NCBI GenBank assembly: GCA_023151315.1
Contig: JAKLJE010000012.1
Coordinates: forward strand, 27,584 to 91,583
DNA length: 64,000 bases
Direction of reading: 5' to 3'
Source: Bacteroidia bacterium
Lineage (GTDB): Bacteria; Bacteroidota; Bacteroidia; Palsa-965
Below are positions 900-63,212 of the stretch, one piece after another (the stretch's first letter is position 1; the number at the start of each line of letters is the position of its first letter). Below the pieces are notes generated by a model, which did not search any database, was not told the origin of the DNA, and saw only the letters and a list, made by a program, of their open reading frames with translations. The position numbers and the translations under genes are program-made.

Positions 900-1090
900 G
901 TTATTATTGCTTCTTCTTTCTTGAAATATCAATGAGCAGCAACATTGCAAACGGCAATGCGTGCACCGCAGCAATTCCGGCGAAGTAACCGTTGAGAACC
1001 AGAACAGTTGTTACAATCGCAACTGCTATCAATCCGCCAATAGCGATTTTTCTCATTTTACTCATGTGCGTAAAGATACGATGGATGCCA

Positions 1091-1135
1091 AATAAAAAAC
1101 CCGGAAATCATCAGATGAAATCCGGGTTTTATTTT
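1091..1135. terminator. Bidirectional intrinsic terminator downstream of groEL.
   Basis: AACCCGGA (1098-1105) and TCCGGGTT (1121-1128) form a perfect 8-bp stem. It is flanked by an A-run upstream and TTTTATTTT downstream. Confidence 0.6.
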
Positions 1136-1149
1136 CAGGAAGGGATGAT

Positions 1150-2784
<1,635 letters not shown>

Positions 2785-8360: not shown

Positions 8361-11006
8361 ATGGCAAAGAATTTAGTGATCGTAGAGTCGCCTGCAAAGG
8401 CAAAAACAATTGAGAATTTTCTCGGTAAAGACTTTACCGTGAAATCGAGTTTTGGTCATGTGCGGGACCTCGTTAAAAAAGGACTCGCTGTAGATACAGA
8501 AAAGGGATTCACTCCCAATTACGAAATCTCTCCGGATAAGGAGAAAGTGATTGCCGAACTGAAGAGATTGGCAAAGGACGCAGACATCGTCTGGCTCGCA
8601 ACGGATGAGGACCGCGAAGGAGAAGCCATTTCGTGGCACTTGTCGGAAGCGCTGAAACTTGACGACAAGAAAACACGTCGTATTGTGTTCCACGAGATCA
8701 CGAAACCGGCAATCATGAAAGCGATTGAATCGCCGAGAAAGATTGATCGTCACTTGGTAGATGCACAGCAGGCGAGACGTATTCTCGATCGTCTCGTTGG
8801 TTTTGAATTGTCTCCGATTTTATGGAAGAAAGTAAAACCATCTCTTTCTGCGGGTCGTGTACAGAGTGTAACCGTTCGTCTTATCGTTGAACGCGAGCGA
8901 GAAATTGCTGCATTCAAATCAACTTCTTCTTACAAAGTTTCAGCGGTTTTCATCAGCAACGGACAGAAGTTCAAAGCGGAATTGCGCTCTAATTTCAAAA
9001 CGATTGAAGAAGCACGCAAATTCCTGCATGTGTGTTCCAAGTCAACGTTCACAGTTTCTTCTCTCGAAACAAAACCATCACGTAAATCTCCTTCTGCACC
9101 GTTCACAACATCAACGTTACAGCAGGAAGCTTCTCGTAAACTTGGTTTTTCTCCGAAGAGAACAATGGTTGTGGCGCAGCGACTTTACGAAAGCGGTAAG
9201 ATCACATACATGCGAACTGACTCCGTGAACCTCTCTGAACTCGCTCTTGGTAAAGCCAAAGAAGTGGTAACTAAGAGTTACGGTGCAAAGTACGTTCACA
9301 CACGTCAGTATAAAACGAAAAACAAAGGCGCACAGGAAGCCCACGAAGCAATTCGTCCGACTTACCTCGAGCGCAATATGGTCGAAGGTGAACGTGACGA
9401 ACAACGCCTTTACGATCTGATCTGGAAGCGCACAATCGCTTCTCAAATGGCGGAAGCGGAACTCGAAAAAACAACTGCAGTTATTGCGGTGTCCGGTGCT
9501 TCAGAAACTTTCGTTGCGCAGGGAGAAGTAATCAAGTTCGACGGTTTCCTTGCTGTGTACATGGAGTCATCTGATGATGATAACGAAGATGACGACAGCG
9601 AGAACTCAGAAGCAATGCTTCCTCCTCTGAAAACAGGACAGGCATTGAATTCACACGCAATCACGGCAACACAACGTTTCACACATCATCCTCCGCGTTA
9701 TACAGAAGCTGCGTTGGTGAAAAAGCTTGAAGAGCTCGGAATCGGTCGACCTTCAACTTACGCTCCGACAATTTCTACAGTACAGGAACGCGGTTACGTT
9801 GTGAAGGAAGAACGTGAAGGAAAGCAAAGATCTTACGATGTTCTCACGCTCTCCAACGGAACAATCAATGAAGAAAAGCGCACGGAGAATACCGGCGCAG
9901 AAAAAAATAAATTGTTCCCGACGGATATCGGAACAGTTGTAACCGATTTTCTCAGTCAGTACTTCCCGAAAATCATGGACTACGGTTTCACGGCAAACGT
10001 GGAAGAAGAGTTTGATGAAATTGCCGAAGGAAAAATTGATTGGAGAAAAATGCTCGAGCAGTTCTACCGTCCGTTTCACAAAGACGTGGAGAAAACGGAA
10101 GAAACTTCTGAGCGAGCAAGCGGTGAACGTTTGCTCGGAAAAGATCCGCTTACGAAAAAGAACGTTTACGTTCGTATCGGTCGTTTCGGTCCATTGGTAC
10201 AGATCGGTGAAAGTGATGATCCGGAAAAGAAATTTGCAAGTCTGCGCAAAGACATGCGTCTCGAAACAGTGACTTTCGAAGATGCAATGGAATTGTTCAA
10301 ACTTCCTAAGACAGTTGGAAGTTATAAAGGCAAGGAACTCGTGATTGGAATCGGTCGTTTCGGTCCTTACGTGAAATGGGGCGATCAGTATGTTTCAATC
10401 CCACGCGGTGAGGATCCGATGAAAGTGGAAGAGGAGCGCGCTGTTGAGTTGGTGAAACAGAAAGAAGCTGCGGATGCTCCGATCGCGCAATACAAAGGAA
10501 CTCCGGTTACAAAAGGAAAAGGTCGTTTCGGACCGTTCATTAAGTTCGGTGATATATTCATCAACGTTCCGCGTGCATATGATTTCGATAATCTTTCGCA
10601 GAATGATATCGCAGAACTGATCGAAAAGAAACTCGAGAAGGAAGCGAATCGTTACATCAGGCAGTGGCCGGAAGAAAAAATTTCATTGGAGAACGGCCGT
10701 TGGGGTCCTTTCATTCGTTTCGGAAAAGCCATGTTGAAAATCACACGCAGTGATAAGCAGGAAAAACTTTCGCCGGAAGAAGTTGCTGAACTTTCACTCG
10801 AACAAGTGAAAGCCATGATCGAAGCTCAGGTTCCGGGTGCTTTTGACAAAAAAGGTTCTAAAGCTCCTGCGAAAAAGTCCAAAGCTCCGGCCAAAGCAAC
10901 GAAGGCTCCGGCGAAGAAAACAAAGGCGCCTGCAGTAAAAAAAGCTCCGGCAAAAAAAGCTCCGGCAAAGAAAGCAGCTAAGAAGGCGGCAAAAAAACGC
11001 AAGTAG
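8361..11006 (+). CDS. topA: DNA topoisomerase I (type IA) with a lysine/alanine-rich basic C-terminal tail.
   Basis: Toprim N-terminus MAKNLVIVESPAKAKTIENFLG. Several Zn-ribbon-like repeats of the form GRFGPY. Tail KAPAKKSKAPAKATKAPAKKTKAPAVKKAPAKKAPAKKAAKKAAKKRK. Confidence 0.93.
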   Translation: MAKNLVIVESPAKAKTIENFLGKDFTVKSSFGHVRDLVKKGLAVDTEKGFTPNYEISPDKEKVIAELKRLAKDADIVWLATDEDREGEAISWHLSEALKLDDKKTRRIVFHEITKPAIMKAIESPRKIDRHLVDAQQARRILDRLVGFELSPILWKKVKPSLSAGRVQSVTVRLIVEREREIAAFKSTSSYKVSAVFISNGQKFKAELRSNFKTIEEARKFLHVCSKSTFTVSSLETKPSRKSPSAPFTTSTLQQEASRKLGFSPKRTMVVAQRLYESGKITYMRTDSVNLSELALGKAKEVVTKSYGAKYVHTRQYKTKNKGAQEAHEAIRPTYLERNMVEGERDEQRLYDLIWKRTIASQMAEAELEKTTAVIAVSGASETFVAQGEVIKFDGFLAVYMESSDDDNEDDDSENSEAMLPPLKTGQALNSHAITATQRFTHHPPRYTEAALVKKLEELGIGRPSTYAPTISTVQERGYVVKEEREGKQRSYDVLTLSNGTINEEKRTENTGAEKNKLFPTDIGTVVTDFLSQYFPKIMDYGFTANVEEEFDEIAEGKIDWRKMLEQFYRPFHKDVEKTEETSERASGERLLGKDPLTKKNVYVRIGRFGPLVQIGESDDPEKKFASLRKDMRLETVTFEDAMELFKLPKTVGSYKGKELVIGIGRFGPYVKWGDQYVSIPRGEDPMKVEEERAVELVKQKEAADAPIAQYKGTPVTKGKGRFGPFIKFGDIFINVPRAYDFDNLSQNDIAELIEKKLEKEANRYIRQWPEEKISLENGRWGPFIRFGKAMLKITRSDKQEKLSPEEVAELSLEQVKAMIEAQVPGAFDKKGSKAPAKKSKAPAKATKAPAKKTKAPAVKKAPAKKAPAKKAAKKAAKKRK
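10850..10995 (+). repeat. Coding low-complexity AAAGCTCCGGC(A/G)AAG-type repeats encoding the KAPAKK tail of TopA.
   Basis: Repeated 'aaagctccggc' units are visible in the DNA. Confidence 0.6.
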
Positions 11007-25885: not shown

Positions 25886-25893
25886 TATATTTG
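25886..25893 (+). promoter_or_regulatory. Candidate Bacteroidota sigma-A -7 box TATATTTG upstream of the hisG leader.
   Basis: It matches the TAnnTTTG consensus. A TTG sits at 25865-25867, about 18 nt upstream. The motif ends 4 nt before the leader ATG. Confidence 0.45.
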
Positions 25894-25897
25894 CCAC

Positions 25898-25954
25898 ATG
25901 AAAATGAACAACACAATGAAACATCACCATCAGTTTGCAGGGCGCAAGCTGTGA
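25898..25954 (+). CDS. Putative his leader peptide MKMNNTMKHHHQFAGRKL.
   Basis: An 18-codon ORF with CAT CAC CAT at 25922-25930. It lies between the promoter box and a terminator hairpin upstream of hisG. Confidence 0.5.
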   Translation: MKMNNTMKHHHQFAGRKL

Positions 25955-25979
25955 TTTTTCATTTGAGAAATATTTCACG

Positions 25980-26010
25980 AGGCTTGCTGTAAAGGCAAGC
26001 CTTTTTTATT
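25980..26010 (+). terminator. Attenuator/terminator hairpin upstream of hisG.
   Basis: AGGCTTGC (25980-87) and GCAAGCCT (25995-26002) form a perfect 8-bp stem with loop TGTAAAG, followed by TTTTTTATTT. A leader segment GCGCAAGCT (25943-51) can alternatively pair with the 5' arm. Confidence 0.7.
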
Positions 26011-26020
26011 TGTTAACGGT

Positions 26021-26887
26021 ATGAAAACAGAAACGAAACTCAGAATTGCAATTCAGAAGTCGGGACGGCTGAACGACGATTCCATCCGGATGCTGAAAGA
26101 ATGCGGAATTGAATTCGACAACGGCTTGAACAAACTGAAAGCATCCGCATTTAACTTTCCACTCGAAGTTCTTTTTCTTCGCGATGATGATATTCCGGAG
26201 TACGTTGAACAAGGTGTAGCGGATATCGGAATTGTTGGTGAGAATGTTCTTGTAGAATCAGGAGCCAAAGTGAAACTTATTGAGAAACTGGGTTACGGAA
26301 AATGCCGTTTGAGTATTGCGGTTCCGAAGGATGTTAAGTATTCCGGGATAAAAGATTTGAACGGAAAGCGTATCGCTACAACTTACAGTCGAGTGTTGCA
26401 GAAATATCTCGCGAAGAATAAAGTGAAAGCAGAGATACACGAAATCAGCGGATCAGTGGAGATTGCAACAGGAATCGGACTTGCGGAAGCAATCTGTGAT
26501 ATTGTAAGTTCCGGCAGCACACTGTTTACAAACGGTCTCAAAGAGGTGGAAACCGTGATGAAATCTGAAGCTGTTCTGATCGGTAACAATAAACTGAATG
26601 CAGCTCAACTGCGTATAGTTGAACGCTTGTTGTTCCGCATCCGTGCATCGAGAACTGCGAAGCGCAACAAGTATTTGCTTCTGAATGCGCCGGACAATAA
26701 ACTTGACACTATCTGCAAATTGATTCCGGGAATGAAAAGTCCGACTGTACTTCCTTTAAAGCAAAAGGGATGGAGCTCTGTTCATTCAGTTATTGATGAG
26801 GAAAAATTCTGGGACATCATTGAGCAGCTTCGTGACGCCGGAGCTGAAGGAATACTTGTAGTGCCAATCGAAAAAATGGTAGTGTGA
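26021..26887 (+). CDS. hisG: ATP phosphoribosyltransferase HisG (long form).
   Basis: N-terminus MKTETKLRIAIQKSGRLNDDS. 288 aa including the C-terminal regulatory domain. Confidence 0.9.
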   Translation: MKTETKLRIAIQKSGRLNDDSIRMLKECGIEFDNGLNKLKASAFNFPLEVLFLRDDDIPEYVEQGVADIGIVGENVLVESGAKVKLIEKLGYGKCRLSIAVPKDVKYSGIKDLNGKRIATTYSRVLQKYLAKNKVKAEIHEISGSVEIATGIGLAEAICDIVSSGSTLFTNGLKEVETVMKSEAVLIGNNKLNAAQLRIVERLLFRIRASRTAKRNKYLLLNAPDNKLDTICKLIPGMKSPTVLPLKQKGWSSVHSVIDEEKFWDIIEQLRDAGAEGILVVPIEKMVV

Positions 26888-28167
26888 TGATAAAGTACAT
26901 TGAATATCCGGATGCGGAGATGTTGAAGTTGCTTCTGCAACGTCCCGTGAACAACAATTCCGCTGACGAATCTGTAGTTGCTTCAATACTTGAAGATGTT
27001 CGTGCGAATGGAGACGCAGCAGTGCGACAATACACCGAGAAGTTCGATCACTGCACAATTGGTGAAATGCTGGTCAGTGAACAGGAAATTTTCAATGCCT
27101 ATCAGGCGGTTTCCATTGAATTGAAAGAGGCGATTGAGACAGCAAAAGCAAATATTGAACGTTTTCACCGAACGCAACACGTAGGCAGTGCACCGATAGA
27201 AACCATGCCGGGTGTTCGATGCTGGAGAAAATCGGTTCCAATTGAAACTGTCGGACTTTATATTCCCGGTGGTTCAGCTCCTCTGTTTTCTACTGTGCTC
27301 ATGCTTGCTGTTCCTGCAGTGATTGCAGGCTGCGGAAGAATCGTGTTGTGTACTCCGCCGGATAAGAACGGGAATATCAATCCTGCGATATTATATGCCG
27401 CGAGTACTTGCGGTGTTTCTGAAATTTATAAAGTGGGAGGAGTGCAGGCAATTGCAGCAATGTATTTCGGAACGGAGTCTGTTCCGCAGGTTTCAAAAAT
27501 CTGCGGCCCGGGAAACAGTTGGGTGACTATGGCGAAGCAACTCATCGCAAAAAACGGATTTCCTATTGACATTCCTGCCGGACCTTCAGAGTTGGCTGTG
27601 TATTGCGATAACACTGTTCCAGCAGAGTTCGTTGCAGCGGATTTATTGTCACAAGCTGAACACGGTGCCGACAGTCAGGTTCTTGTACTTTCAGAAGACA
27701 AAGGAATACTTCAGGAGATAATTGAAGCAATCAAAGTTCAGGTTGATGTTTTGCCTCGCAAGGAGATTGCGATGAAAGCGTTGGCGAACAGTGCAGCAGT
27801 TCTTGTAAAGAATCAGAATGATGCAATGGAAATCTTCAATAAGTATGCACCTGAGCATTTGATTCTCGCATGTGATTCCGCGGAGATACTGGCGCAGCAA
27901 GTAGTGAACGCAGGAAGTGTTTTCATTGGCGCATGGTCTCCGGAGAGCGCGGGAGATTACGCATCGGGAACGAATCATACATTGCCAACCAATGGAAATG
28001 CAAGAGGGTGGAGTGGCGTTTCTGTGGATACATTCGTTCGGAAGATAACTTTTCAGCACCTGAGTAAAGAAGGATTGCAACGAATCGGGAAGACGGTTGA
28101 AGTGATGGCGGAAGCAGAAGGCTTACAAGCGCACAGGAATGCAGTAACAATTCGTTTAGGAAAATAA
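26887..28167 (+). CDS. hisD: Histidinol dehydrogenase HisD.
   Basis: ATG at 26887 overlaps the hisG stop (TGATG). Roughly 426 aa with conserved HisD motifs. Confidence 0.9.
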   Translation: MIKYIEYPDAEMLKLLLQRPVNNNSADESVVASILEDVRANGDAAVRQYTEKFDHCTIGEMLVSEQEIFNAYQAVSIELKEAIETAKANIERFHRTQHVGSAPIETMPGVRCWRKSVPIETVGLYIPGGSAPLFSTVLMLAVPAVIAGCGRIVLCTPPDKNGNINPAILYAASTCGVSEIYKVGGVQAIAAMYFGTESVPQVSKICGPGNSWVTMAKQLIAKNGFPIDIPAGPSELAVYCDNTVPAEFVAADLLSQAEHGADSQVLVLSEDKGILQEIIEAIKVQVDVLPRKEIAMKALANSAAVLVKNQNDAMEIFNKYAPEHLILACDSAEILAQQVVNAGSVFIGAWSPESAGDYASGTNHTLPTNGNARGWSGVSVDTFVRKITFQHLSKEGLQRIGKTVEVMAEAEGLQAHRNAVTIRLGK

Positions 28168-28177
28168 AAGGAAGATA

Positions 28178-29245
28178 ATGTTCAATTTAGAGAAACTGAT
28201 CAGAGCTAACATTCTTGCACTGACACCTTACTCCTCTGCACGCGATGAGTTTAAAGGCGAAGCAAAAGTATTTCTTGACGCGAATGAGAATAGTTTCGGT
28301 TCTCCGGCTGGAGATTCGCATAATCGATATCCGGATCCGATGCAGAAGAATCTGAAGGATCGCTTGTCGGCAATTAAAGGCGTGCCGGCGGGAAATATTT
28401 TTCTCGGCAATGGAAGTGATGAAGTAATCGATATTCTGTTCCGCGTATTCTGCGAGCCGGGACGCGATAATGTGATTATTGTTCCACCCACGTACGGAAT
28501 GTATGAAGTGAGTGCCAACATTAATGCAGTTGAGGTGAGAAAAGTTCCGCTGACGGCAGAGTTTCAGCTGAACGTTGAAGGTATTTCCGAATCGGTTGAT
28601 GAAAATACCAAGTTGATTTTCATTTGCTCTCCGAATAATCCAACCGGAAACAGTATTGACCGAGATGATGTTGAATTCGTGCTCAATAACTTCAATGGCA
28701 TTGTCGCAGTGGATGAAGCGTACATCAATTATTCAAGGCAGAAGTCGTTTATAGCGGAGCTGACAGAATATCCGAACCTGGTTGTGATGCAGACGTTGTC
28801 TAAAGCATGGGGGCTTGCCGGTGTACGCATAGGAATGTTGTTTGCGTCAGATGAGATTATTGCCGTGATGAATAAGGTGAAGCCACCGTACAATATCGGC
28901 ACTCCGGCACAGGAGCTCGCACTAAATGCGTTAAACCGTATTCAGGAAGTAAATGAATGGATTCGCAGTACGGTGAGTGAAAGAGACAGGTTGGTACGTC
29001 AGTTGGCGCACAATCTGTTGATTCGAAAAATATATCCTTCAGATGCTAATTTTCTATTGGTAAAAGTTGATGAACCGAAGAAGGTATATAATTACCTTGT
29101 TGATAAAGGTATTATTATACGAGATCGTTCAGGGGTAACGTTATGCGAAGGATGTTTGCGAATTACCGTTGGTACTCCTGCAGAGAACGAAATGTTGATT
29201 ACCGAGTTGAATAACTATTCGAAACAGTTTTCATTTAATCAATAA
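28178..29245 (+). CDS. hisC: Histidinol-phosphate aminotransferase HisC.
   Basis: 355-aa class-II aminotransferase with the PLP lysine region TLSKAWGLAGVRIG. Confidence 0.88.
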   Translation: MFNLEKLIRANILALTPYSSARDEFKGEAKVFLDANENSFGSPAGDSHNRYPDPMQKNLKDRLSAIKGVPAGNIFLGNGSDEVIDILFRVFCEPGRDNVIIVPPTYGMYEVSANINAVEVRKVPLTAEFQLNVEGISESVDENTKLIFICSPNNPTGNSIDRDDVEFVLNNFNGIVAVDEAYINYSRQKSFIAELTEYPNLVVMQTLSKAWGLAGVRIGMLFASDEIIAVMNKVKPPYNIGTPAQELALNALNRIQEVNEWIRSTVSERDRLVRQLAHNLLIRKIYPSDANFLLVKVDEPKKVYNYLVDKGIIIRDRSGVTLCEGCLRITVGTPAENEMLITELNNYSKQFSFNQ

Positions 29246-29251
29246 AGCGCA

Positions 29252-30364
29252 ATGAAACAGAAACTGCTTTTCATCGACAGAGACGGAACACTAATTTGGG
29301 AGCCGCCGGATACTTTTCAGATTGACTCGTTCAGCAAGTTGAAATTTCTGCCGGGTGTTTTTTACTGGTTGAGAAAAATCGCCGAAGAACTGGATTATGA
29401 ATTGGTGATGGTCACGAATCAGGACGGTCTTGGCACGGCTTCTTTTCCTGAGGATACATTCTGGCCGGTGCAGAATTTCATTGTGCAATCAATGAAGAAT
29501 GAAAACATAATTTTCTCTGAAGTTTGCATCGACAGAAGTTTTCCTGCGGATAGTCTTCCGACGCGTAAACCAGGAACAGGAATGCTGACGAAGTATTTTG
29601 CTCCTGAGTACGATCTGCAAAATTCATTTGTGATCGGAGACCGTTTGACAGACGTGAAACTGGCGAAGAATCTCGGGGCAAAATCAATTTTCATCCGTAA
29701 CTATGATGAAGCGGGAGAATACGCTGCTTCAATAGATCTCATCGCCGAAGATTGGTCGCAAATCTATCAGTTTCTGAAACTTCCTCCTCGCAGAGTTTCT
29801 CATTCACGCAACACCAACGAAACCAGAATAAGCATTGATTTGAATCTGGATGGAAGTGGAAAAGGTAAGATACGAACGGGTCTTTCATTCTTTGATCACA
29901 TGCTGGAGCAACTGGTTCGTCACGGAAATATTGATCTTGATTTGGTAGCAGAAGGAGATCTTCACATTGATGAACATCACACAATTGAAGATACGGGAAT
30001 TGCGTTGGGAGAAGCGTTCACCGCCGCATTGAAAGAGAAGCGTGGAATTAATCGTTACGGATTTCTTTTACCCATGGACGATTGTTTGGCGCAAGTAGCA
30101 GTTGATTTCGGAGGAAGACCATGGATTGAATGGAATGCCGAGTTTAAACGGGAAAAAGTCGGAGACATGCCAACAGAAATGTTTTTTCACTTTTTCAAAT
30201 CATTCAGTGATGCGGCGCGATGCAATCTGAATATTAAAGCAGAAGGTGATAACGAGCATCACAAAATAGAAAGCATTTTCAAGGCCTTTGCGAAAGCGAT
30301 CAGAATCGCAGTGAAGCGGAATCCGGATGATAATTCATTGCCGACAACAAAAGGGATAATCTGA
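29252..30364 (+). CDS. hisB: Bifunctional histidinol-phosphatase / imidazoleglycerol-phosphate dehydratase HisB.
   Basis: N-terminal HAD motif [10 protein letters not shown]-terminal IGPD domain with [14 protein letters not shown]. Confidence 0.9.
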
Positions 30365-30371
30365 TTGACGA

Positions 30372-31481
30372 CTATTTCTGTTCTGGTGATTTAATCGGAT
30401 AATACGTGTTCAGAAGATTGTAGTACGGACCGAAATAGTGATGTGTGAAAATACTTTTACCGTTATCCGGAAAAAGTTTGTGATAGTTTTCGTCCGGCTG
30501 GAGAATAATAGGAATGCCGCATGGATAATAAGCCATGCTCTTTACGTATTTCTGTTTAGGCATACCCGGAATTCGCTTACGCACCAGTTTTCCTGTTTTG
30601 TGAGCGAGATATTTTCGGAATCTTCGTTCCGCTCTTTTTGCTCCGCGGTTCATTTTTTTAATCACGTGATTTCCGATGAGTTTGGCGGGGAATCCAATTC
30701 GCACGCGTTTATCAAATTCCGAAAAAGGATTTCCGGGGCTAAGATCATTTATGGTTTGTACACTGAATGGAACTTCCGGGACCCAATCAGCTGTGTTCAC
30801 TATTCTGAATGCCCATCCGCCCCGCGAAATAAAATCGAAGTCGTATGAATACTTCAGATTTCCGGGTTTTGGTGCAGCACTTCCGTAAACTTTTAATCTG
30901 ATATCTGCAGGAATCGTTACTCCTCGTTTGTAATGAAGATACGAGTACAGCAGAAACGAAATTGCTGCACCTTGTGAATGACCGACGATTATAAAATCGC
31001 GAATACCGTTTTTGTACTGTTCATTGATTTTATCAGTCACGTTTTTAGCAATGCTCGCGAGTCCGATTGTCCATCCGATATGCACATAAGCCAGTGAATC
31101 CTGCGCAAGTTTATAATCGAATAATATTCCGTTTCCCAAGTTCAGCTTTCCGGTTGCGGGAATCATTCCGGCATAGAAATTCTCCAACCAAGAATCATTA
31201 GAAGCAGTAGTTCCCCGCACGCTGATTACTGCCACTGAATCGTTGCTCAGCCACATGTCCCAGCGGTTGTCAAGTCCGCCAACGGTAGAGCGATGAATCA
31301 TATTATATCCGGCAGGATAAGGAACCCGCATTTTATTCCAAGGCGTGTCAATCTGATGAGCACTGATCTGAAACATTTTTCTGAATTCAGCACCGTCAAA
31401 ACCCGGTTGAATACGACGGGCTTCAGCCGCAGCATCAAACTGCAGCAGAAATAGTAGCGTTAAGACGAGAGCTCTGCCCAT
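30372..31481 (-). CDS. Secreted class-3 lipase-like alpha/beta hydrolase.
   Basis: Signal peptide MGRALVLTLLFLLQFDAAAEA. Nucleophile elbow IVGHSQGAAISFL. Encoded on the opposite strand between the two his sub-operons. Confidence 0.7.
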   Translation of the reverse strand: MGRALVLTLLFLLQFDAAAEARRIQPGFDGAEFRKMFQISAHQIDTPWNKMRVPYPAGYNMIHRSTVGGLDNRWDMWLSNDSVAVISVRGTTASNDSWLENFYAGMIPATGKLNLGNGILFDYKLAQDSLAYVHIGWTIGLASIAKNVTDKINEQYKNGIRDFIIVGHSQGAAISFLLYSYLHYKRGVTIPADIRLKVYGSAAPKPGNLKYSYDFDFISRGGWAFRIVNTADWVPEVPFSVQTINDLSPGNPFSEFDKRVRIGFPAKLIGNHVIKKMNRGAKRAERRFRKYLAHKTGKLVRKRIPGMPKQKYVKSMAYYPCGIPIILQPDENYHKLFPDNGKSIFTHHYFGPYYNLLNTYYPIKSPEQK

Positions 31482-31570
31482 GACGTGAAATTACGCTATT
31501 CCATGTAAGATTATTCTCATTTTGCCTGTGAAAATATTAAGGCTGGTATCATTTACGTGTGATCTACGAT

Positions 31571-31578
31571 TATATTTG
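31571..31578 (+). promoter_or_regulatory. Candidate -7 box TATATTTG upstream of the second his leader.
   Basis: TATATTTGCC occurs 4 nt before leader ATG 31583, identical to the hisG arrangement. Confidence 0.45.
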
Positions 31579-31582
31579 CCTT

Positions 31583-31630
31583 ATGATTCTTAAACACATC
31601 TCAGTACATCATCATTTCTTATCGTTTTAA
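31583..31630 (+). CDS. Putative second his leader peptide MILKHISVHHHFLSF.
   Basis: A 15-codon ORF with CAT CAT CAT at 31607-31615. It is followed by a terminator hairpin before the PabA/TrpG-type gene and hisH. Confidence 0.5.
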   Translation: MILKHISVHHHFLSF

Positions 31631-31664
31631 GGAAGCGATGGTAACTCTGTTGATATAAATCAGA

Positions 31665-31690
31665 ACCCGCTTCCAAAGCGGGTTTTTTAT
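31665..31690 (+). terminator. Attenuator/terminator hairpin upstream of the PabA/TrpG-hisH-hisA-hisF-hisIE genes.
   Basis: ACCCGCTT (31665-72) and AAGCGGGT (31676-83) form a perfect 8-bp stem with loop CCA, followed by TTTTTATTAT. GGAAGCG (31631-37), just after the leader stop, is perfectly complementary to CGCTTCC (31668-74) and can form an antiterminator. Confidence 0.7.
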
Positions 31691-31702
31691 TATCTTGAAA
31701 CT

Positions 31703-32287
31703 ATGCCTGATTTCAGAATCTTGATTATTGACAACTACGATTCGTTCACCTACAATTTGGTGCACGAAATCGGGCGAGTGTGTCCTGAGGCATATATACA
31801 CGTTGTGCAAAATGATGTTGTAGATCCGTCGGATTGTTTCAACTACAATTGCATTGTGCTTTCTCCGGGCCCGGGTATTCCTGAAGAGTCCGGAAAATTG
31901 CTGGATGTGATTCGGGTGGCGGCAGGAAAGATTCCTATTCTCGGAGTGTGCCTTGGTCACCAAGCTTTGAATGTTGCATGCGGAGGTCAATTGAAAAATC
32001 TCAGTAAGGTTTTTCACGGCGTGAGTACGCCGATCGTTGTTACCGACAAAGACTCTGTTTTATTCCAAGGTTTTGGAACACAGTTTAACGCAGGTCGCTA
32101 TCATTCCTGGGTGATCGATGAAGAAACGCTGCCGGAGTCATTTACGATTACAGCGCAGGATGAATCAGGTAATGTGATGGCCATCGAAAACAAAGAGAAA
32201 AAAATGTTTGGAATACAATTTCATCCGGAGTCAATCATGACACCTGAAGGCAAACGTATCATACGTAATTTTTTATCCGTTGTATGA
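31703..32287 (+). CDS. Class-I glutamine amidotransferase of the PabA/TrpG type (aminodeoxychorismate or anthranilate synthase component II).
   Basis: The hallmark IIDNYDSFTYNLV is present, with catalytic GVCLGHQ and a His at the expected position in FHPES. Distinct from the HisH gene that follows. Confidence 0.8.
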   Translation: MPDFRILIIDNYDSFTYNLVHEIGRVCPEAYIHVVQNDVVDPSDCFNYNCIVLSPGPGIPEESGKLLDVIRVAAGKIPILGVCLGHQALNVACGGQLKNLSKVFHGVSTPIVVTDKDSVLFQGFGTQFNAGRYHSWVIDEETLPESFTITAQDESGNVMAIENKEKKMFGIQFHPESIMTPEGKRIIRNFLSVV

Positions 32288-32868
32288 AGATCGTAATTGT
32301 TAAATATAACGCTGGCAATGCAACGTCTGTTCGATTTGCGCTGCAACGTTTGGGAGCAGACGCTGTAGTCTCCAATGAACCGGAGATTATCAAGAGTGCA
32401 GATCGTGTGATTTTTCCCGGAGTTGGCGAAGCGTCTTCTGCAATGCAGTTTTTACGCAAAGCCGGACTTGATAATGTGATAAAGGAACTGCGTCAACCGG
32501 TTCTGGGTATTTGCCTTGGAATGCAGTTGATGTGTTCCCAAAGTGAAGAAGGTAATACCGAAGCGCTTGGAATATTTCCTGTTCAGGTGAAGAAATTTCC
32601 TGAAGCTGAATTCAAAGTTCCGCATATGGGATGGAACACGCTGTCCAATCTTAAAGGACCATTGTTTGCAGGCGTTCCCGATCAGGCATTTATGTATTAC
32701 GTACATAGTTTCTATGCCGAACAATGTGCGTATACTATTGCAAGCACTGAATACATTCTGAATTATTCTGCTGCGTTGCAAAAAGACAATTACTTCGGTG
32801 TGCAATTTCACCCTGAGAAAAGCGGCGCTGAGGGAGAACGTATTATCAAAAACTTTCTGGAAGTATGA
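32284..32868 (+). CDS. hisH: Imidazole glycerol phosphate synthase glutamine amidotransferase subunit HisH.
   Basis: N-terminus MKIVIVKYNAGN. GICLGMQ motif. FHPEKSG motif. ATGA overlap with the upstream gene. Confidence 0.88.
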   Translation: MKIVIVKYNAGNATSVRFALQRLGADAVVSNEPEIIKSADRVIFPGVGEASSAMQFLRKAGLDNVIKELRQPVLGICLGMQLMCSQSEEGNTEALGIFPVQVKKFPEAEFKVPHMGWNTLSNLKGPLFAGVPDQAFMYYVHSFYAEQCAYTIASTEYILNYSAALQKDNYFGVQFHPEKSGAEGERIIKNFLEV

Positions 32869-33596
32869 TTGAGATTATTCCTGCAATAGACATTATTGAC
32901 GGCAAGTGCGTGCGACTTACCGAGGGGGATTACCAACGCATGACCGTTTACAATAGCGATCCGGTTGCGGTTGCGTCTCAGTTTGAACAGGCGGGTGTAC
33001 GCCGACTGCATCTCGTGGATCTGGATGGAGCGAAAGCGGGAACAGTGAAGAATCTTGCGGTACTGGAACGCATTGCTGCAGCTACTAAACTTATAATTGA
33101 TTTTGGTGGCGGAGTAAAAACAGAGACAGAAATGAATTCTGTTTTATCTGCCGGAGCTTCTTTTGTAACGGTTGGTAGTCTGGCTGCTAAATCGCCTGAA
33201 GTATTTGAAATGTGGTTGGCAAATTCCGGAGCGGATAATTTTTTCATCGGTGCGGATGTCAGAGCGGGAAAGATCGCAGTGAGTGGTTGGTTGGAGCAAA
33301 CAGATATCGAAGTGGTTGAGTTTATTCGCGATCTGATGAATAAACGGGTGCATTATTTTTTCTGTACGGATATTTCAAAAGATGGTAAACTGGAAGGGCC
33401 TTCGGAAGAGCTTTACAGAATGATCATCGCTCGCTGTCCGGGAATACGTTTGGTGGCGAGTGGAGGTATCAGTAATTGGGAAGATATTTATTGCATGGAG
33501 AAGCTGGGCTGTGAAGGTGTGATAATTGGTAAAGCATTTTATGAAAATCGTATTTCTATCAAGGAAATCGAAAAGTTTAATCTGAACGCTTTGTGA
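32865..33596 (+). CDS. hisA: ProFAR isomerase HisA.
   Basis: N-terminus [18 protein letters not shown]. (beta/alpha)8 fold. Overlaps the hisH stop. Confidence 0.88.
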
Positions 33597-33597
33597 A

Positions 33598-34353
33598 ATG
33601 CTGACGAAAAGAATTATTCCATGCCTTGATGTGAAGAATGGTCGCACCGTTAAAGGTGTCAACTTTGTAAATCTGCGTGACGCAGGTGATGCAGTTGAAC
33701 TGGCTTCGCGTTATGCGGAAGAAGGGGCTGACGAGTTGGTGCTTCTGGATATCTCTGCAACCGATGAAAAACGGAAAACATTAGCAGAACTCGTTAGGAA
33801 TGTAGCAGCAGCGGTGAATATTCCATTCACTGTTGGAGGCGGTATTGTCGGGATAGAAGATGTGCGTTCAATACTTGAAAACGGTGCGGATAAGGTTTCC
33901 GTGAATTCAGCCGCAGTGCGGGATCATCTGTTGATTGATGCGTTGGCGCGCGAGTTCGGAAGTCAATGCGTGGTTGTGGCGGTAGATACGCGTCGCACTG
34001 CTCAAGGGAATCGCGTATTTCTGAATGGAGGAAAGGTTGCAACCGAGCTTGATACTTTGGAATGGATCAAAGAAGCAGAACAACGCGGTGCAGGAGAAAT
34101 TCTTCTGACTTCCATGGATCATGACGGAACGAAGAACGGTTTTGATGTGGAATTTCTGAAAGAGGTTTCCTCATCCGTACGGATACCGGTTATCGCGTCA
34201 GGAGGAGCGGGCACAATGGAACATTTCGCAGAAGCATTTCTTAAATCGGGAGCTGATGCAGCACTGGCAGCGAGTATTTTTCATTTCGGTGAAATCCGCA
34301 TCAAGGACCTGAAGGATTATCTTTACAAGCAAGGAATTCAGATTCGCTTATGA
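33598..34353 (+). CDS. hisF: Imidazole glycerol phosphate synthase cyclase subunit HisF.
   Basis: N-terminus [23 protein letters not shown]. Confidence 0.9.
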
Positions 34354-35003
34354 GAACATTTACTATTGCAGCACTTCTGATTGTATTGATATCAGGATGT
34401 TCGCATTCCAGATTTGTGAAGCCGCTCAATCCGGGGCAACATGCAGTTACTGCTTCGTTCGGCGGACCATTGATAAAGTTCAGCGGTGCGGTAATTCCGA
34501 TTCCGCTTACTTCGATAGGTTACGGGTACGGAGTGGATACAAATCTTACGTTGTTCGGGAATCTGCACACTACTTCATTGTTGTACGGTACAGGACAAGT
34601 TGATGCCGGTGTGTGTTGGAATGTGTTTACCGTAAATCGTTTCGGTTTAAATGCTGCTGTGTCCGCGAATATGACCATGGATAAGTGGGAGAAGAATTTC
34701 AGAGCGTGGCCGGTAGTTGATTTGAATCTCACTTTCGACAGAAAGCAAGGCGGCTATTGGTATCTGGGATGCAATAACTGGATTGAGTTTACAAAGCAGC
34801 GCTCTCATGGCGTGAATCAGGAGCGACAATTGATATTCTCTCCGCAAATCGGGCATATGTTCCTGAAGGAAAAGTGGCGTTTCCAGATTGAAGCAAAATA
34901 CATTTTACCATACGTGAAGAACCAACCCAATGCAGTGGATTACATCGGGTTGAATCACTACGGAGCAACAGGAGTTTATTTCGGACTTTACAGAACATTC
35001 TGA
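34350..35003 (+). CDS. Hypothetical lipoprotein translationally coupled to hisF.
   Basis: Lipobox [10 protein letters not shown]. The ATGA overlap with the hisF stop, the beta-rich sequence and the C-terminal Phe suggest an outer-membrane protein. Confidence 0.5.
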
Positions 35004-35902
35004 TGAGAAATCTGATCATAGCATTCTTAAGCGCAGCGTTGATATTTACTGCCTGTCAGCGCCTTGATACCAATCTGTACAACAGAACTGATAAATTGAC
35101 GCAGTATGAACTGGATGATTACACAGGCGAACAGGATTTCAAACTGGATGCGTCTTACGATATTCCGGATTCGCTTGTTCATGTTTTCTCATTGCAGAGT
35201 CAGGCTGACGGAGAAGGCAGTTCGACCACGATTTATGCAATTTACATTGGTGAAATTTCCAACATAGCAACAGATACAGTGATTCTGTATTGTCATGGCA
35301 ACAAGTGGCATATGGATTTTTACTGGCAACGTGCGAAGTTGCTGGCTCATTGCGGAGGAAAGAATCGCTTTGGTGTGTTGATGATTGATTACCGCGGATA
35401 TGGAATGTCTGATGGAGATCCTACCGAAGAAGGTTTGTATGCCGATGTTGATGCTGCAATGAAATGGTTGCAACAAAACGGGATGAACAATGATCGTTTA
35501 GCGATCTATGGTTTCAGTATGGGAAGTGCCCCTGCAACTGAACTTTGTTCAAAGCCAAGAACATTAACTCCGGGCTGGTTGCTGCTCGAAGCACCGTTTG
35601 CGTCAGCTGCTGTTATGGTGGAAGACGGTACACAACTGGCAATGCCTTCTTCGTATTTCACCAATCTCGAGATTGACTGTGCTGAAGAAATTAAACGTTG
35701 CAATCAGCCATTGTTCTGGACGCACGGGCTAGCGGATATGTTTCTCGGATACAACACGCACGGTCAGGTTGTATATGATAACCATCGCGGTGTGTACAAA
35801 GAATCTCATCCGGTTGACAATGCCGATCACGGAGAAGTGCCTGCGAAAACAGGATTCACAACATATTGCAACAACATCAGCAACTTCATAACACAACATT
35901 AA
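35003..35902 (+). CDS. Alpha/beta hydrolase lipoprotein.
   Basis: Lipobox FTAC. Nucleophile elbow GFSMGS. TGATG overlap upstream and TAATG overlap with hisIE downstream. Confidence 0.6.
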   Translation: MRNLIIAFLSAALIFTACQRLDTNLYNRTDKLTQYELDDYTGEQDFKLDASYDIPDSLVHVFSLQSQADGEGSSTTIYAIYIGEISNIATDTVILYCHGNKWHMDFYWQRAKLLAHCGGKNRFGVLMIDYRGYGMSDGDPTEEGLYADVDAAMKWLQQNGMNNDRLAIYGFSMGSAPATELCSKPRTLTPGWLLLEAPFASAAVMVEDGTQLAMPSSYFTNLEIDCAEEIKRCNQPLFWTHGLADMFLGYNTHGQVVYDNHRGVYKESHPVDNADHGEVPAKTGFTTYCNNISNFITQH

Positions 35903-36495
35903 TGAAACCGGATTATTCCAAATATTCAGACGGACTTGTTCCCGCTGTAATTCAGGACGCAGCTACAGGAGTTGTGTTAATGCTTGGCTTTATGAATGAA
36001 GATGCATTGCAAGCAACTCATTCTTCGGGGAACGTTACGTTCTGGTCGCGCAGTAAAAATCGCTTGTGGACAAAAGGAGAAGAGAGCGGTAATTTCCTCA
36101 GAGTTGTCGATGTTCGTATTGATTGCGATAATGATACGTTGCTCGTTAAAGCAAATCCTGTTGGGCCGGTGTGTCATACGGGTGCTGATACATGCTGGAA
36201 TGAATTGAACACGGGAGATTTTCTCCGTCAGATGGAAAGAGTAATTCAATCGCGAAAAGGCGCTGATCCTTCCACTTCATATACAGCACAATTGTATTTC
36301 AAAGGAATCAACAAGATTGCTCAAAAAGTAGGAGAGGAGGCGGTTGAATTGGTGATTGAAGCGAAGGACGATGACAAAGAAAAGTTTTTGGGAGAAGCAG
36401 CAGATCTGCTGTTTCATTACACTGTTTTACTTTCTGCTAAAGGATTTGCAATTAAAGATGTGGAAGAAGTGCTGAAAGCACGTCACAAGAAATAA
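35902..36495 (+). CDS. hisI: Bifunctional phosphoribosyl-AMP cyclohydrolase / phosphoribosyl-ATP pyrophosphatase HisIE.
   Basis: HisI motif CHTGADTCW followed by the HisE helical domain. Start ATG overlaps the upstream TAA. Confidence 0.85.
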   Translation: MKPDYSKYSDGLVPAVIQDAATGVVLMLGFMNEDALQATHSSGNVTFWSRSKNRLWTKGEESGNFLRVVDVRIDCDNDTLLVKANPVGPVCHTGADTCWNELNTGDFLRQMERVIQSRKGADPSTSYTAQLYFKGINKIAQKVGEEAVELVIEAKDDDKEKFLGEAADLLFHYTVLLSAKGFAIKDVEEVLKARHKK

Positions 36496-46577: not shown

Positions 46578-46767
46578 AATGATTTGTTGTTTAGGGTTTG
46601 TGATTGTTTCAAATGTGAAGTTAGAAGACAAATTACCAATCACAAGCGGAGAAAGCGATTTTATTTTGTGCATTGACAAAGATCATTTGCGACAAACGTC
46701 AATTCTTTGCGGGTAAACACAGCATGTTTTAACACGGGTTGTGACTTCAGGCGATTATCTTTGCCCG

Positions 46768-59922: not shown

Positions 59923-60471
59923 TCAATTTTCAGGGTTTTGACGTTGTGTGTGCAACAGGCTTCTCAGTATTTGAACCAATTCACCCGATTTCTGCGTGCC
60001 GATTCTGTAAATCTCTCCGGCGTTATCACGGATTTCAACGAATTCGTTGCCCCAGGTATAAAACCTGATCTTGCCCTTAATTTTCAAATTGAAAACCGGT
60101 CGCGCAAAAATTGTAGGTCGTACCGTCACTTTTCTGACTTGAACAATCGATTGAATCGGGATCTCAACTATTCTTCCCGCAAGCTTCCCTTTAATTCTGA
60201 TGATTCGATTGTCCACTTTGATTTTCATGTGAGGAACAAACAACAGAATCACCGACAATGCAACTAACGCTAATCCCAGTACGAAAAAGAGTTCACCGTA
60301 TCTCACATCACCCGGATATTCACCAATGTGAATCATCGCCACGTCAACCGGTTTCGGGTTTTCAGACCAGTAATAAGCAACGAAGCAAAATACACTCAGA
60401 AGCAATCGCCTGATCATGGAGTGTTTGTTGAGACCATGATATTGCTGTTCTTCAAAAATCAGTTTTTCCAT
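59923..60471 (-). CDS. Membrane protein with a bacterial PH (bPH_2/YdbS-like) domain.
   Basis: Two TM helices followed by a beta-rich PH-like domain. Start at ATG (MEKLIF), which overlaps the 3' end of tilS by 13 nt. Confidence 0.5.
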   Translation of the reverse strand: MEKLIFEEQQYHGLNKHSMIRRLLLSVFCFVAYYWSENPKPVDVAMIHIGEYPGDVRYGELFFVLGLALVALSVILLFVPHMKIKVDNRIIRIKGKLAGRIVEIPIQSIVQVRKVTVRPTIFARPVFNLKIKGKIRFYTWGNEFVEIRDNAGEIYRIGTQKSGELVQILRSLLHTQRQNPEN

Positions 60472-61775: not shown

Positions 61776-61789
61776 TTCCCTGTTCTTGA

Positions 61790-63055: not shown

Positions 63056-63212
63056 TGGGTAAATCTCCGAAAAAAAAGCGATTTTCAACGAATAACGCGA
63101 TATTAACAGGAGTGAGGCCGTTGTTAATTTTCACTGACTATTTTCGCTTCCAAAAATTGGAAAGATCGGTGTGTTTTTACGTAACTTGCGTACCTGAATA
63201 ACCTCCTACCCA

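Follow-up and report, generated by a model that had tools for sequence, protein, structure and literature searches.

A his locus split by a lipase gene in a Bacteroidia bacterium, with two predicted His attenuators, the second most likely a re-coded trp attenuator

Gene content of the split his locus

The window (the whole stretch of DNA that was analysed, 64,000 nucleotides) carried two co-directional his blocks, hisGDCB at 26021-30364 and a second one at 31703-36495 composed of a trpG-like glutamine amidotransferase (GATase) gene, hisHAF, two exported-protein genes and hisIE, with a minus-strand class-3 lipase gene between them (Table 1). Gene identities were checked by Pfam and NCBIfam scans, and they agreed with the original prediction that a minus-strand lipase gene splits the his genes. 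The order from hisD to hisH recurred at 100% identity in independent metagenome contigs, and the arrangement is thus not an assembly artefact. As to the second block, its GATase-hisHAF-hisIE content was predicted correctly, but the two non-his genes between hisF and hisIE had been overlooked, and hisIE most likely starts at the ATG at 35902 rather than at 35866.

The first of these two genes encodes a lipoprotein of 217 aa without match in the Pfam and NCBIfam scans; its AF2 model (pLDDT 93.6) matched outer-membrane barrels in Foldseek, and its dN/dS was 0.05-0.07. The lipase protein shows a signal peptide and a GHSQG motif. Its gene is convergent with hisB, 7 nt separating the stop codons, and divergent from the leader that precedes the GATase gene (leader 2).

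Table 1. Features of the split his locus and of the candidate GATase partner, with positions in the window.
Feature	Position	Strand	Evidence or remark
Leader 1, putative -7 promoter box TATATTTG (TAnnTTTG)	25886-25893	+	Match to pattern TANNTTTGNNNNATG
Leader 1 ORF, MKMNNTMKHHHQFAGRKL*	25898-25954	+	ORF scan; His codons 25922-25930
Leader 1 hairpin 1:2 (anti-antiterminator)	25915-25963	+	Minimum-free-energy folds; spans His codons
Leader 1 antiterminator (2:3)	25944-25987	+	Fold, dG -16.2 kcal/mol
Leader 1 intrinsic terminator, 10-bp stem and T run	25979-26009	+	Fold, dG -15.4 kcal/mol
hisG	26021-26887	+	Pfam scan
hisD	26884-28167	+	Pfam scan
hisC	28178-29245	+	Pfam scan
hisB, bifunctional (HAD and IGPD)	29252-30364	+	Pfam scan
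Class-3 lipase-like exported protein	30372-31481	-	Pfam Lipase_3, 55 bits (cutoff 22)
Leader 2, putative -7 promoter box TATATTTG	31571-31578	+	Pattern match; 4 nt ahead of leader ATG
Leader 2 ORF, MILKHISVHHHFLSF*	31583-31630	+	His codons 31607-31615, one extra 31595-31597
Leader 2 hairpin 1:2	31608-31642	+	Minimum-free-energy fold; spans His codons
Leader 2 antiterminator, GGAAGCG:CGCUUCC pairing	31631-31674	+	Fold, dG -16.5 kcal/mol
Leader 2 intrinsic terminator, 11-bp stem and T run	31662-31692	+	Homologous to Trp-leader terminators of lineages D and E
TrpG/PabA-type GATase	31703-32287	+	TIGR00566, 182 bits (cutoff 121)
hisH	32284-32868	+	Pfam scan
hisA	32865-33596	+	Pfam scan
hisF	33598-34353	+	Pfam scan
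Lipoprotein outer-membrane beta-barrel, 217 aa, uncharacterised family	34350-35003	+	Lipobox; AF2 model; Foldseek
Lipoprotein alpha/beta-hydrolase, 299 aa, inside operon	35003-35902	+	Pfam Hydrolase_4 and Abhydrolase_1; lipobox
hisIE (start revised)	35902-36495	+	Pfam scan; 197-aa gene calls in relatives
PabB-like chorismate-utilising enzyme, candidate GATase partner	61790-63088	-	Top NCBIfam match TIGR00553 pabB, 305 bits (just below cutoff, 328)

Predicted attenuators of the two his blocks

Upstream of each his block lay a putative promoter box, then a short ORF containing three His codons and, after it, a strong terminator; alternative 1:2 and 2:3 pairings were present in both leaders. The -7 box of leader 1, located before hisG, ends 4 nt ahead of the leader ATG; its TAnnTTTG pattern corresponds to the Bacteroidota -7 promoter consensus, and relatives have an equivalent box upstream of leader 2. 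Over the 11 kb scanned, no other terminator-like hairpin was as strong as the two terminators (11 and 10 pairs), and leaders 1 and 2 folded better than their shuffles (z -3.6 and -3.8, respectively). Both leaders are kept in relatives; the related lineages examined are here designated A to F. The ORF of leader 1 is almost unchanged in lineages B, C and D, and the leaders of lineage B carry just two His codons. Equivalent His-rich leaders were found ahead of hisG in most of 80 Bacteroidota loci scanned; leader 1 is an ordinary hisG leader occurring across this phylum.

In folds of leader 1 without ribosome, hairpin 1:2 formed at -18.9 kcal/mol and the terminator 5' arm stayed unpaired (0/10 nt); when the ribosome was set to stall on the His codons and the transcript ended before the 3' arm, the 2:3 pairing sequestered 7/10 nt of this 5' arm. 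The antiterminator of leader 2 sequestered the complete 5' arm (11/11 nt) in its fold. In leader 2 the ORF stop lies immediately next to region 2, so that a ribosome terminating there would block antiterminator pairing. Co-transcriptional-style folds gave the expected three states for the leaders of the window and of lineages B, C, D and E. Full-length equilibrium folds retained the terminator every time, a behaviour that is expected of kinetic switches and is not a proof of them.

The ORFs, terminators, folds and conservation lend in silico support to the proposal that both halves lie behind separate His-codon leaders, and suggest that each half is controlled by a classical transcription attenuator of the ribosome-mediated (leader-peptide) type. 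The near-leaderless short ORF with its three His codons would be translated as RNA polymerase transcribes the leader. With His-tRNA charged, the ribosome would reach the stop codon and cover region 2, the terminator (3:4) would form and transcription would end. With His-tRNA scarce, the ribosome would stall on the His codons and leave region 2 free to pair with the terminator 5' arm (2:3), and the polymerase would enter the downstream genes.

Synteny of the locus and origin of leader 2

The original prediction explained the split by insertion of the lipase gene into an uninterrupted hisGDCBHAFIE operon, after which duplication of leader 1 or a newly acquired promoter-leader-terminator module rescued the second half. 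That contiguous order is found in most Bacteroidota loci. The synteny of relatives, set beforehand as the test, did not bear this out: each of the six related lineages examined (A to F) had a lipase ortholog at the same position, even where a trp operon comes next, and the lipase is hence ancestral at the locus. The hisGDCB genes lie upstream of the lipase in lineages A to D, not in E, and lineages B and C share the gene arrangement of the window. In lineage F the his operon is gone from the locus, and the lipase and the GATase remain, with no leader.

Ancestrally, the gap between hisB and hisH was filled by a trp operon, as it is in lineages D and E and in many Chitinophagaceae. Lineage D has hisGDCB, the minus-strand lipase and Trp leader-trpEGDCF(BA)-aroG-hisHAF-U217-ABH-hisIE; lineage E, the minus-strand lipase and trpEGDCFBA-aroG-hisHAFIE; many Chitinophagaceae, hisGDCB-Trp leader-trpEGDCFBA-hisHAFIE. 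The nearest relative of the window, with 92-99% identity in the his proteins, shows a Trp-type leader, MKMNLINKHWWHN..., and then trpEGDCFBA-aroG, between the lipase and hisH. The order hisGDCB-trp-hisHAFIE was already known for two genera, Thermoflavifilum and Filimonas (PMC8305728).

The supposed copying of leader 1 into leader 2 fared no better. The similarity of the two leaders was not significant (local-alignment z 1.3), their terminators and spacers are unrelated, and leader 2 is continuous with the Trp leader in position and sequence. Both leaders do have TATATTTGCC-NN-ATG in common, and the leader 2 ORF of lineage C is identical to the leader 1 ORF at 30 of 36 nt; the Trp-type leaders of lineages D and E already have this 5' likeness, and it is therefore no mark of a duplication creating a His leader. 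Insertion followed by duplication or acquisition is thus considered very improbable.

Along the leader 2 series, local-alignment z values were 31.8 (window-B), 13.8 (B-C) and 8.8 (window-C), and the lineage C leader 2 reached 14.9-16.5 against the Trp leader of lineage D. Direct comparison of the window leader 2 with Trp leaders was weak (z 3.7 and 0.3), comparisons of spacers alone being of low power, and the argument for homology depends on the lineage C intermediate together with the conserved position. In all lineages, neither the placement of the element with respect to the orthologous lipase nor its geometry changes. Across nine leaders, His-type and Trp-type, the terminator helix was 97.9% paired, with four pairs changed on both sides, and its covariation score was reached by none of 500 shuffles. 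The terminators of lineages C and D agree at all but about 3 of 27 positions and have the loop sequence and the GUGUGA antiterminator partner in common.

Leader 2 could instead have arisen independently, de novo or imported with the GATase, its terminator resembling that of Trp leaders by convergence of GC-rich terminators. With a covariance model derived from 20 Trp leaders, leader 1 scored higher (27.1 bits) than leader 2 (19.6 bits), so that the model does not place leader 2 in a trp family; that it matches leader 1 too points to a generic architecture, as do, in favour of this alternative, the subthreshold Rfam Trp_leader matches of both leaders and the weak direct similarity of the window leader 2 to Trp leaders. 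However, the constant position and geometry, the closeness of the C and D terminators and the highly significant window-B-C chain argue against an independent origin, which is regarded as highly unlikely.

The absence of significant likeness to leader 1, the chain of intermediates leading to the Trp leader, the same position and the terminator pairing kept by compensatory changes indicate that leader 2 is most likely the resident trp attenuator with its codons changed from HWWH to HHH, the re-coding probably having run from Trp to His.

A chimeric origin would retain the trp attenuator for the 3' half (antiterminator and terminator), with short-patch gene conversion bringing in the 5' His-codon half from leader 1, a one-step switch of specificity. 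The likeness of the leader 2 ORF in lineage C to that of leader 1 (30-31/36 nt, z 6.4, 0/500 shuffles) allows such a conversion for part of leader 2; the lineage B leader 2 is identical to leader 1 at 20 of 23 nt (z 3.8), and the two leaders lie in direct orientation, 5.7 kb apart. Nevertheless, nine of the matched nt are His codons, alike by function alone, and the rest of the 5' likeness (ATGAAAATGAA) is found too in the Trp leaders of lineages D and E. The window leader 2 ORF is itself unlike leader 1, and 16 of 57 unrelated hisG leaders score equally. Gene conversion may be the source of the His-codon part of the leader 2 ORF, and the chimera as a whole is judged unlikely.

The GATase gene is best read as the surviving trpG of the lost trp operon; beyond its own clade, the homologs closest to it are trpG genes in trp operons at the same position. 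Its stop overlaps the hisH start by 4 nt in lineages A, B and C, whose GATases were monophyletic in 197 of 200 bootstraps; both features suggest a single origin of the trp-less cassette. A search with TrpB of lineage D gave matches at 99% and 98% and the next only at 78%. Since TrpB of the well-sampled lineages A, B and C, if kept, should appear at about 85-97%, the trp genes have probably been lost in these lineages. The GATase is predicted to be functional, given its intact catalytic motifs, its dN/dS of 0.12-0.13, the PabB-like gene in the window and its retention in lineage F, and it has probably been kept as PabA.

The his and GATase trees conflicted strongly. All 100 bootstraps of HisA+HisF+HisIE gave ((A,D),B),C), and the A+D grouping appeared in none of 200 for the GATase. 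Between the window and lineage D, dS was 0.33-1.0 in the his genes and 1.73 in the lipase and was saturated in the GATase; nucleotide identity rose from random level to 92-100% precisely where hisH starts. This conflict between cassette and flanking his genes points to the lipase-leader-GATase segment as an exchangeable allele, trp-plus or trp-minus.

The ancestral locus would have consisted of the minus-strand lipase followed by leader-trpEGDCFBA-aroG-hisHAF-..-hisIE. In the lineage carrying the cassette of the window, trpE and trpD-aroG would have been deleted, trpG surviving joined to hisH, most likely as the PabA partner of the PabB-like protein. Once the trp genes were gone, the regulatory codons would have passed from H-W-W-H to H-H-H, with the terminator and overall geometry retained and the antiterminator pairing rebuilt, and the lipase-leader-GATase allele would have been swapped between close lineages by homologous recombination in hisB and hisH. 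The joint explanation, that is, two His attenuators, leader 2 as a re-coded trp attenuator, the GATase as surviving trpG and an exchangeable cassette, is considered probable.

Comparison with known systems

Like the enterobacterial his attenuator (hisL; RF00514, His_leader), the window leaders combine a short ORF in which His codons follow one another, hairpins 1:2, 2:3 and 3:4 that exclude each other, and an intrinsic terminator immediately ahead of the first structural gene, with ribosome stalling relieving termination, in the window as predicted in silico. No sequence-level match to RF00514 was obtained for them, either at the gathering score or with E values up to 10, and they have three His codons, or two in lineage B, where hisL has seven. 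Unlike hisL, they have a predicted Bacteroidota-type promoter and a near-leaderless ORF without Shine-Dalgarno sequence, and two such elements serve one pathway.

With respect to the trp attenuator (trpL; RF00513) and the Trp leaders of Chitinophagales, leader 2 holds the Trp-leader position of sister lineages, has the terminator core CCCGCU..AGCGGG in common with the latter, and its best subthreshold Rfam match was Trp_leader (24.7 bits, gathering score 41). In contrast to Trp leaders, its regulatory codons are His instead of Trp, its antiterminator is GGAAGCG:CGCUUCC instead of GUGUGA:UCACAC, and it precedes trpG-like and his genes, with no trpE, trpD, trpC, trpF, trpB or trpA.

Del Duca et al. 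(2021) reported that trp genes interrupt the his operons of Thermoflavifilum and Filimonas (Chitinophagaceae), the cluster being probably one transcription unit; the available text (PMC8305728) gave no description of leaders for these clusters. Compared with that text, the same hisGDCB-trp-hisHAFIE architecture is found in many Chitinophagaceae and in lineages D and E, but here a Trp leader lies before trpE, the halves are separated in this clade by a divergent lipase, and the window keeps only trpG of the trp genes.

A limited literature search, which is not proof of novelty, found no described case of a leader-peptide switch from Trp to His codons. The closest parallel is T-box specificity switching by specifier-codon change, described together with swaps between attenuator sensing systems by Naville and Gautheret (2010; PMC2965389). 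As would be the case for leader 2, the terminator/antiterminator scaffold stays working while the sensed amino acid changes; the change lies in a tRNA-binding RNA in the T-box, whereas in leader 2 it would lie in the translated leader peptide.

Gene content and synteny of the his locus

The gene order of the his locus was obtained from an ORF listing and profile scans of the window. These scans agreed with the coordinates of the two his blocks in the original prediction, which had omitted two genes from the second block, those for a 217-aa protein and a 299-aa hydrolase.

Features of the his locus, with the PabB-like gene of the same window
Feature	Position	Strand	Remarks
Leader 1 ORF	25898-25954		before hisG
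Leader 1 terminator	25979-26009		
hisG	26021-26887	+	
hisD	26884-28167	+	
hisC	28178-29245	+	
hisB	29252-30364	+	bifunctional
Lipase_3 gene	30372-31481	-	class 3 lipase, PF01764
Leader 2 ORF	31583-31630		before GATase
Leader 2 terminator	31662-31692		
GATase	31703-32287	+	TrpG/PabA-type amidotransferase
hisH	32284-32868	+	
hisA	32865-33596	+	
hisF	33598-34353	+	
217-aa protein	34350-35003	+	no family match; lipoprotein outer-membrane beta-barrel
299-aa protein	35003-35902	+	lipoprotein alpha/beta-hydrolase
hisIE	start at ATG 35902	+	start from ATG position and comparison with relatives
PabB-like gene	61790-63088	-	305 bits, just below the NCBIfam pabB cutoff of 328

The lipase gene matched its Pfam family at 55 bits (gathering score 22) and encoded a GHSQG motif (GxSxG nucleophile) and an N-terminal hydrophobic signal, judged by eye; lipase activity is predicted. 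It is convergent with hisB, the two stop codons lying 7 nt apart, and no convincing terminator was found on either strand of this junction (30364-30372). The hisB and lipase transcripts would each extend antisense into the other gene, and transcription past the end of hisGDCB could extend to leader 2. The two exported-protein genes lying between hisF and hisIE (34350-35902) have overlapping stops and starts. The 217-aa barrel belongs to no Pfam family and has about 412 cluster representatives; its AF2 model reached a pLDDT of 93.6, with fold matches to generic outer-membrane barrels only.

Relatives of the window (lineage A) were found by protein search with the GATase and by contig look-ups, and are referred to as lineages B to F. 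A metagenome scan with the GATase returned only trpG genes, of at most 54% identity, in ordinary trp operons. Lineages B (L166-L171, L182, L183) and C (L172, L173, L181) showed arrangement and flanks exactly as in the window. Lineage D (L174, L178) carried hisGDCB, the lipase on the minus strand, and leader-trpEGDCF.. and ..trpGDCFBA-aroG-hisHAF-217aa-hydrolase-hisIE. In lineage E, contig L175 carried the minus-strand lipase and then leader-trpEGDCFBA-aroG-hisHAFIE; contig L180 was without the lipase and had rearranged genes 3' of hisH. The 217-aa barrel and the 299-aa hydrolase were conserved under purifying selection in lineages A-D and were missing from the lineage E operon.

On L180, the IGPD/HAD domains of hisB were called within a 661-aa protein with a faint PD40 match (428-2413, minus strand), and hisA, hisF and hisIE were inverted 3' of a truncated piece of hisA, a layout suggestive of local rearrangement. 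Lineage F (L176) kept the outer flanks of the window, GldN ... ABC-F on one side and MORN, TrxR and DUF4249 on the other. Its his operon was gone, and the lipase, the GATase and a hisC-like aminotransferase were left from the cluster beside unrelated genes (8721-10576); no leader or terminator was found 5' of this GATase.

In the original prediction, the operon was taken to have been divided by insertion of the lipase gene in the lineage of the window. This was not borne out: the gene stands at this position across related lineages, even before a trp operon, and is therefore an old resident of the locus, divergent from the leader.

Anatomy and folding of the two leaders

The same layout was found 5' of hisG and of the GATase, comprising a promoter box, a short His ORF and a strong hairpin with a T run. 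The TATATTTG box, which corresponds to the Bacteroidota -7 promoter consensus, ended 4 nt 5' of the ATG in both leaders (25886-25900 and 31571-31585), and because of this short distance both ORFs would be read from leaderless or near-leaderless mRNA. Each ORF contained three consecutive His codons (leader 1, MKMNNTMKHHHQFAGRKL; leader 2, MILKHISVHHHFLSF), which were kept in relatives. The terminator stems were of 10 bp in leader 1 (-15.4 kcal/mol) and 11 bp in leader 2 (-14.1 kcal/mol), each followed by a T run, and were the top two terminator-like sites among 11 kb scanned. Both leaders folded better than their shuffles (z -3.6 and -3.8, respectively). A third match of promoter box plus ATG in the window, at 46756, was rejected as a leader, as it opens a signal-peptide protein.

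Without a ribosome, the hairpin over the His codons (1:2) was present in the full-length folds of both leaders, and in the truncated transcript of leader 1 it left the 5' arm of the terminator (3:4) unpaired. The antiterminator (2:3) was examined by folding transcripts that ended before the 3' arm of the terminator, with a ribosome positioned over the His codons. Region 2 then paired with 7 of the 10 nt of the 5' arm in leader 1 (-16.2 kcal/mol) and with 11 of 11 nt in leader 2 (-16.5 kcal/mol). The stop codon of leader 2 adjoins region 2, and a ribosome completing the peptide would therefore block the antiterminator. In full-length equilibrium folds with the ribosome footprint masked, the terminator persisted every time; the alternative pairing is visible only in transcripts lacking the terminator 3' arm, as expected for a kinetic switch. 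Both leaders would follow, to judge from their sequences, the classical logic of ribosome-mediated attenuators.

No matches were obtained with Rfam at gathering score over the whole window, and His_leader (RF00514) matched neither leader at gathering score or at E values up to 10. By their predicted logic both act like the His_leader family, yet they are not members of it. Trp_leader (RF00513) was the best E-value-mode hit of leader 2, at 24.7 bits, and matched leader 1 at 19.5 bits, both below the gathering score of 41; these subthreshold matches are nonspecific, being obtained with both leaders, and were given no weight as evidence. A covariance model derived from 20 Trp leader sequences scored leader 1 higher (27.1 bits) than leader 2 (19.6 bits); it reflects generic architecture and does not discriminate leader families.

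Relation of leader 2 to Trp leaders and history of the cassette

Among 80 Bacteroidota loci retrieved with hisB, a His-rich leader ORF was found 5' of hisG in the great majority, mostly followed by a terminator, and a His leader before hisH in none. The first His attenuator of the window is therefore ordinary and a second one within the pathway unusual. Candidate attenuators are said to have been reported in Bacteroidetes/Chlorobi by Vitreschak et al. in 2004. Many Chitinophagaceae showed the order hisGDCB, a leader ORF that contains a Trp run together with a terminator, trpEGDCFBA and hisHAFIE, with trpA overlapping hisH in at least one locus. Trp genes within the his operon were already noted in Thermoflavifilum and Filimonas (PMC8305728); the parts of that article covered here do not describe leaders for them. 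In many Chitinophagales the second his half is probably under a trp leader and not under histidine control, which should not be assumed in annotation.

The leader ORF kept a constant distance to the downstream gene throughout the lineages. The peptides were MKMNLINKHWWHNLKNLQTV in lineage D, MNKITINKHWWHNSNSRIV and MTTININKHWWHNSNSRIV in E, (V)KKNSKSQNHHHRI and MNSKSQNHHHRM in C, and MFKQINQWNHHCSSN, MFMQIIQWNHHCTSL and MLKQINQGNHHCSSI in B, beside that of the window; the terminator core CCCGCU..AGCGGG was common to the leaders of the series. Leader similarity was measured as local-alignment z scores against shuffles, which were 31.8 (window to B), 13.8 (B to C), 8.8 (window to C) and 14.9-16.5 (lineage C leader to D Trp leader). 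Scores of leader 2 of the window to Trp leaders were marginal (3.7 and 0.3). In spacer-only alignments, for which the sequences are short and the power low, even the undoubted Trp leaders of D and E gave just z 0.2.

The terminator helix was 97.9% paired in nine leaders, with four pairs altered on both strands, and its covariation score was reached by none of 500 shuffles. This test covered the terminator helix; the antiterminator register differs among lineages. In C, D and E the antiterminator partner is GUGUGA, pairing with the loop UCACAC; in A and B the partners are G(G)AAGCG and CGCUUC(C). The two strands of this pairing have changed in concert, with the terminator retained. One of the lineage C sequences (L172 9873-10000; L181 412-539) had a GTG start. 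The T run behind the lineage C terminator is interrupted (UUUGUUGCUU), and this terminator may be weaker than those of A and B.

Leader 2 of the window gave a z score of only 1.3 to leader 1, and was rejected as a duplicate of it for the whole element. The origin of the split in the original prediction, by lipase insertion with duplication or acquisition of a leader, is not supported. A minor rival explanation is that gene conversion over a short tract of leader 1 supplied part of leader 2. The lineage C ORF is identical to that of leader 1 at 30 of 36 nt, but much of this match consists of His codons and the ATGAAAATGAA start, and the Trp leaders of D and E share this start with leader 1. The better-supported origin is that a resident trp attenuator was re-coded after trp gene loss, leaving a trpG relic, with the cassette of lipase, leader and GATase exchanged between sister lineages. 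Homology is argued from the conserved position, the lineage C intermediate and the near-identical terminators of C and D.

The GATase matched TIGR00566 at 182 bits (cutoff 121) and, set against E. coli PabA, had intact GVCLG and FHPES motifs and the Cys-His-Glu triad. Its dN/dS of 0.12-0.13 indicates purifying selection, somewhat relaxed relative to the his genes (0.02-0.08). None of trpE, trpD, trpC, trpF, trpB and trpA was found within the 64-kb window, where the PabB-like gene, whose product is a candidate partner of the GATase, is the sole gene for a chorismate-utilising enzyme. The start of tilS (60459-61838, minus strand) lies within this gene. Lineage F kept the GATase at its locus with no trp gene alongside. 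A search with the TrpB of lineage D gave matches of 99% and 98%, the next being at most 78%. Had trpB been kept in lineages A, B and C, for which sampling is good, matches at about 85-97% would be expected, so that the result points to trp loss. The most economical reading, slightly more likely than not, is that tryptophan synthesis disappeared from A, B and C and that trpG was retained there as PabA.

By flanking proteins, lineage D was closest to the window (hisG 98%, hisB 97%, hisH 92%, hisA 97% and hisF 99% identity), and the HisA+HisF+HisIE tree was (((A,D),B),C),E in every one of 100 bootstraps. The GATase of the window was 58% identical to the trpG of D, 70% to that of B and 65% to that of C; in its tree A+B+C were monophyletic in 197 of 200 bootstraps and A+D never grouped. 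Synonymous divergence between the window and D was 0.33-1.0 in the his genes, 1.73 in the lipase (equal to window-to-B) and saturated in the GATase, and nucleotide identity changed precisely at the start of hisH from a random level to 92-100%. From this tree conflict and the jump in divergence, the segment of about 30365-32283 (lipase, leader and GATase) has a history unlike that of its flanks.

Either lineage D regained a trp-plus cassette or lineage A received a trp-minus one, in both cases through recombination in hisB and hisH; the GATase/hisH overlap, identical in A, B and C, argues for a single origin of the trp-minus cassette. A simple trp deletion from a D-like ancestor was rejected on the 58% GATase identity, against 92-99% in the flanks. 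Additionally, hisH and the GATase (31703-32868; orthologs in L166, L169 and L172) evolved 2-3 times faster than the adjoining his genes, with window-to-B identities of 64-70% against 86-97% in other genes.

Possible dual sensing and comparison with known attenuators

In Trp leaders followed by hisH, a His codon stood right after the Trp run in 18 of 18 loci, and also in the L174 leader, as WWWH or HWWH (the leaders, upstream of trpE, were those of L008, L009, L012, L021, L030, L035, L039, L040, L052, L070, L072, L095, L101, L111, L119, L123, L174, L175 and L180). Of 12 trp operons lacking his genes, only 3 showed this codon. Lineages D and E have H-W-W-H, and in D the 5' side of the 1:2 hairpin stem includes all four codons. 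In the E. coli trp operon, stalling at an adjoining non-cognate codon relieves attenuation (PMC1183508). Dual Trp/His sensing by the Trp leaders before hisH is plausible, the association being confounded by phylogeny.

The ancestral second leader, with the control region K-H-W-W-H-N, may have been a dual Trp and His sensor for a mixed operon, trpEGDCFBA-aroG-hisHAF..IE. After trp gene loss other codons would have taken the place of the W codons and a new antiterminator would have formed with the old terminator, giving a His-only sensor, and trp-plus and trp-minus cassettes would persist between sister lineages as exchangeable alleles. This joint reading is put forward tentatively, with somewhat less than an even chance of being correct. 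If true, it would be a natural case of a leader-peptide attenuator being re-specified, with the intermediate forms surviving today.

The locus is a moderately interesting evolutionary case, its regulatory behaviour being predicted throughout from the DNA. Together with its relatives it forms a natural series of graded steps: a trp operon inside the his operon behind a Trp (possibly Trp and His) leader; the same scaffold carrying His codons, with the trp genes lost; and a lineage with lipase and amidotransferase as remnants at the locus. The series opens the questions of how many codon changes are needed to re-target an attenuator, whether a mixed control region can respond to two amino acids, and how remodelling of the operon, a probable auxotrophy for tryptophan and the rewiring of regulation combine. 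Leader-peptide attenuators are textbook switches, and to our knowledge a change of the amino acid sensed by them is poorly documented. The mechanism is the known one, employed twice at the his locus.
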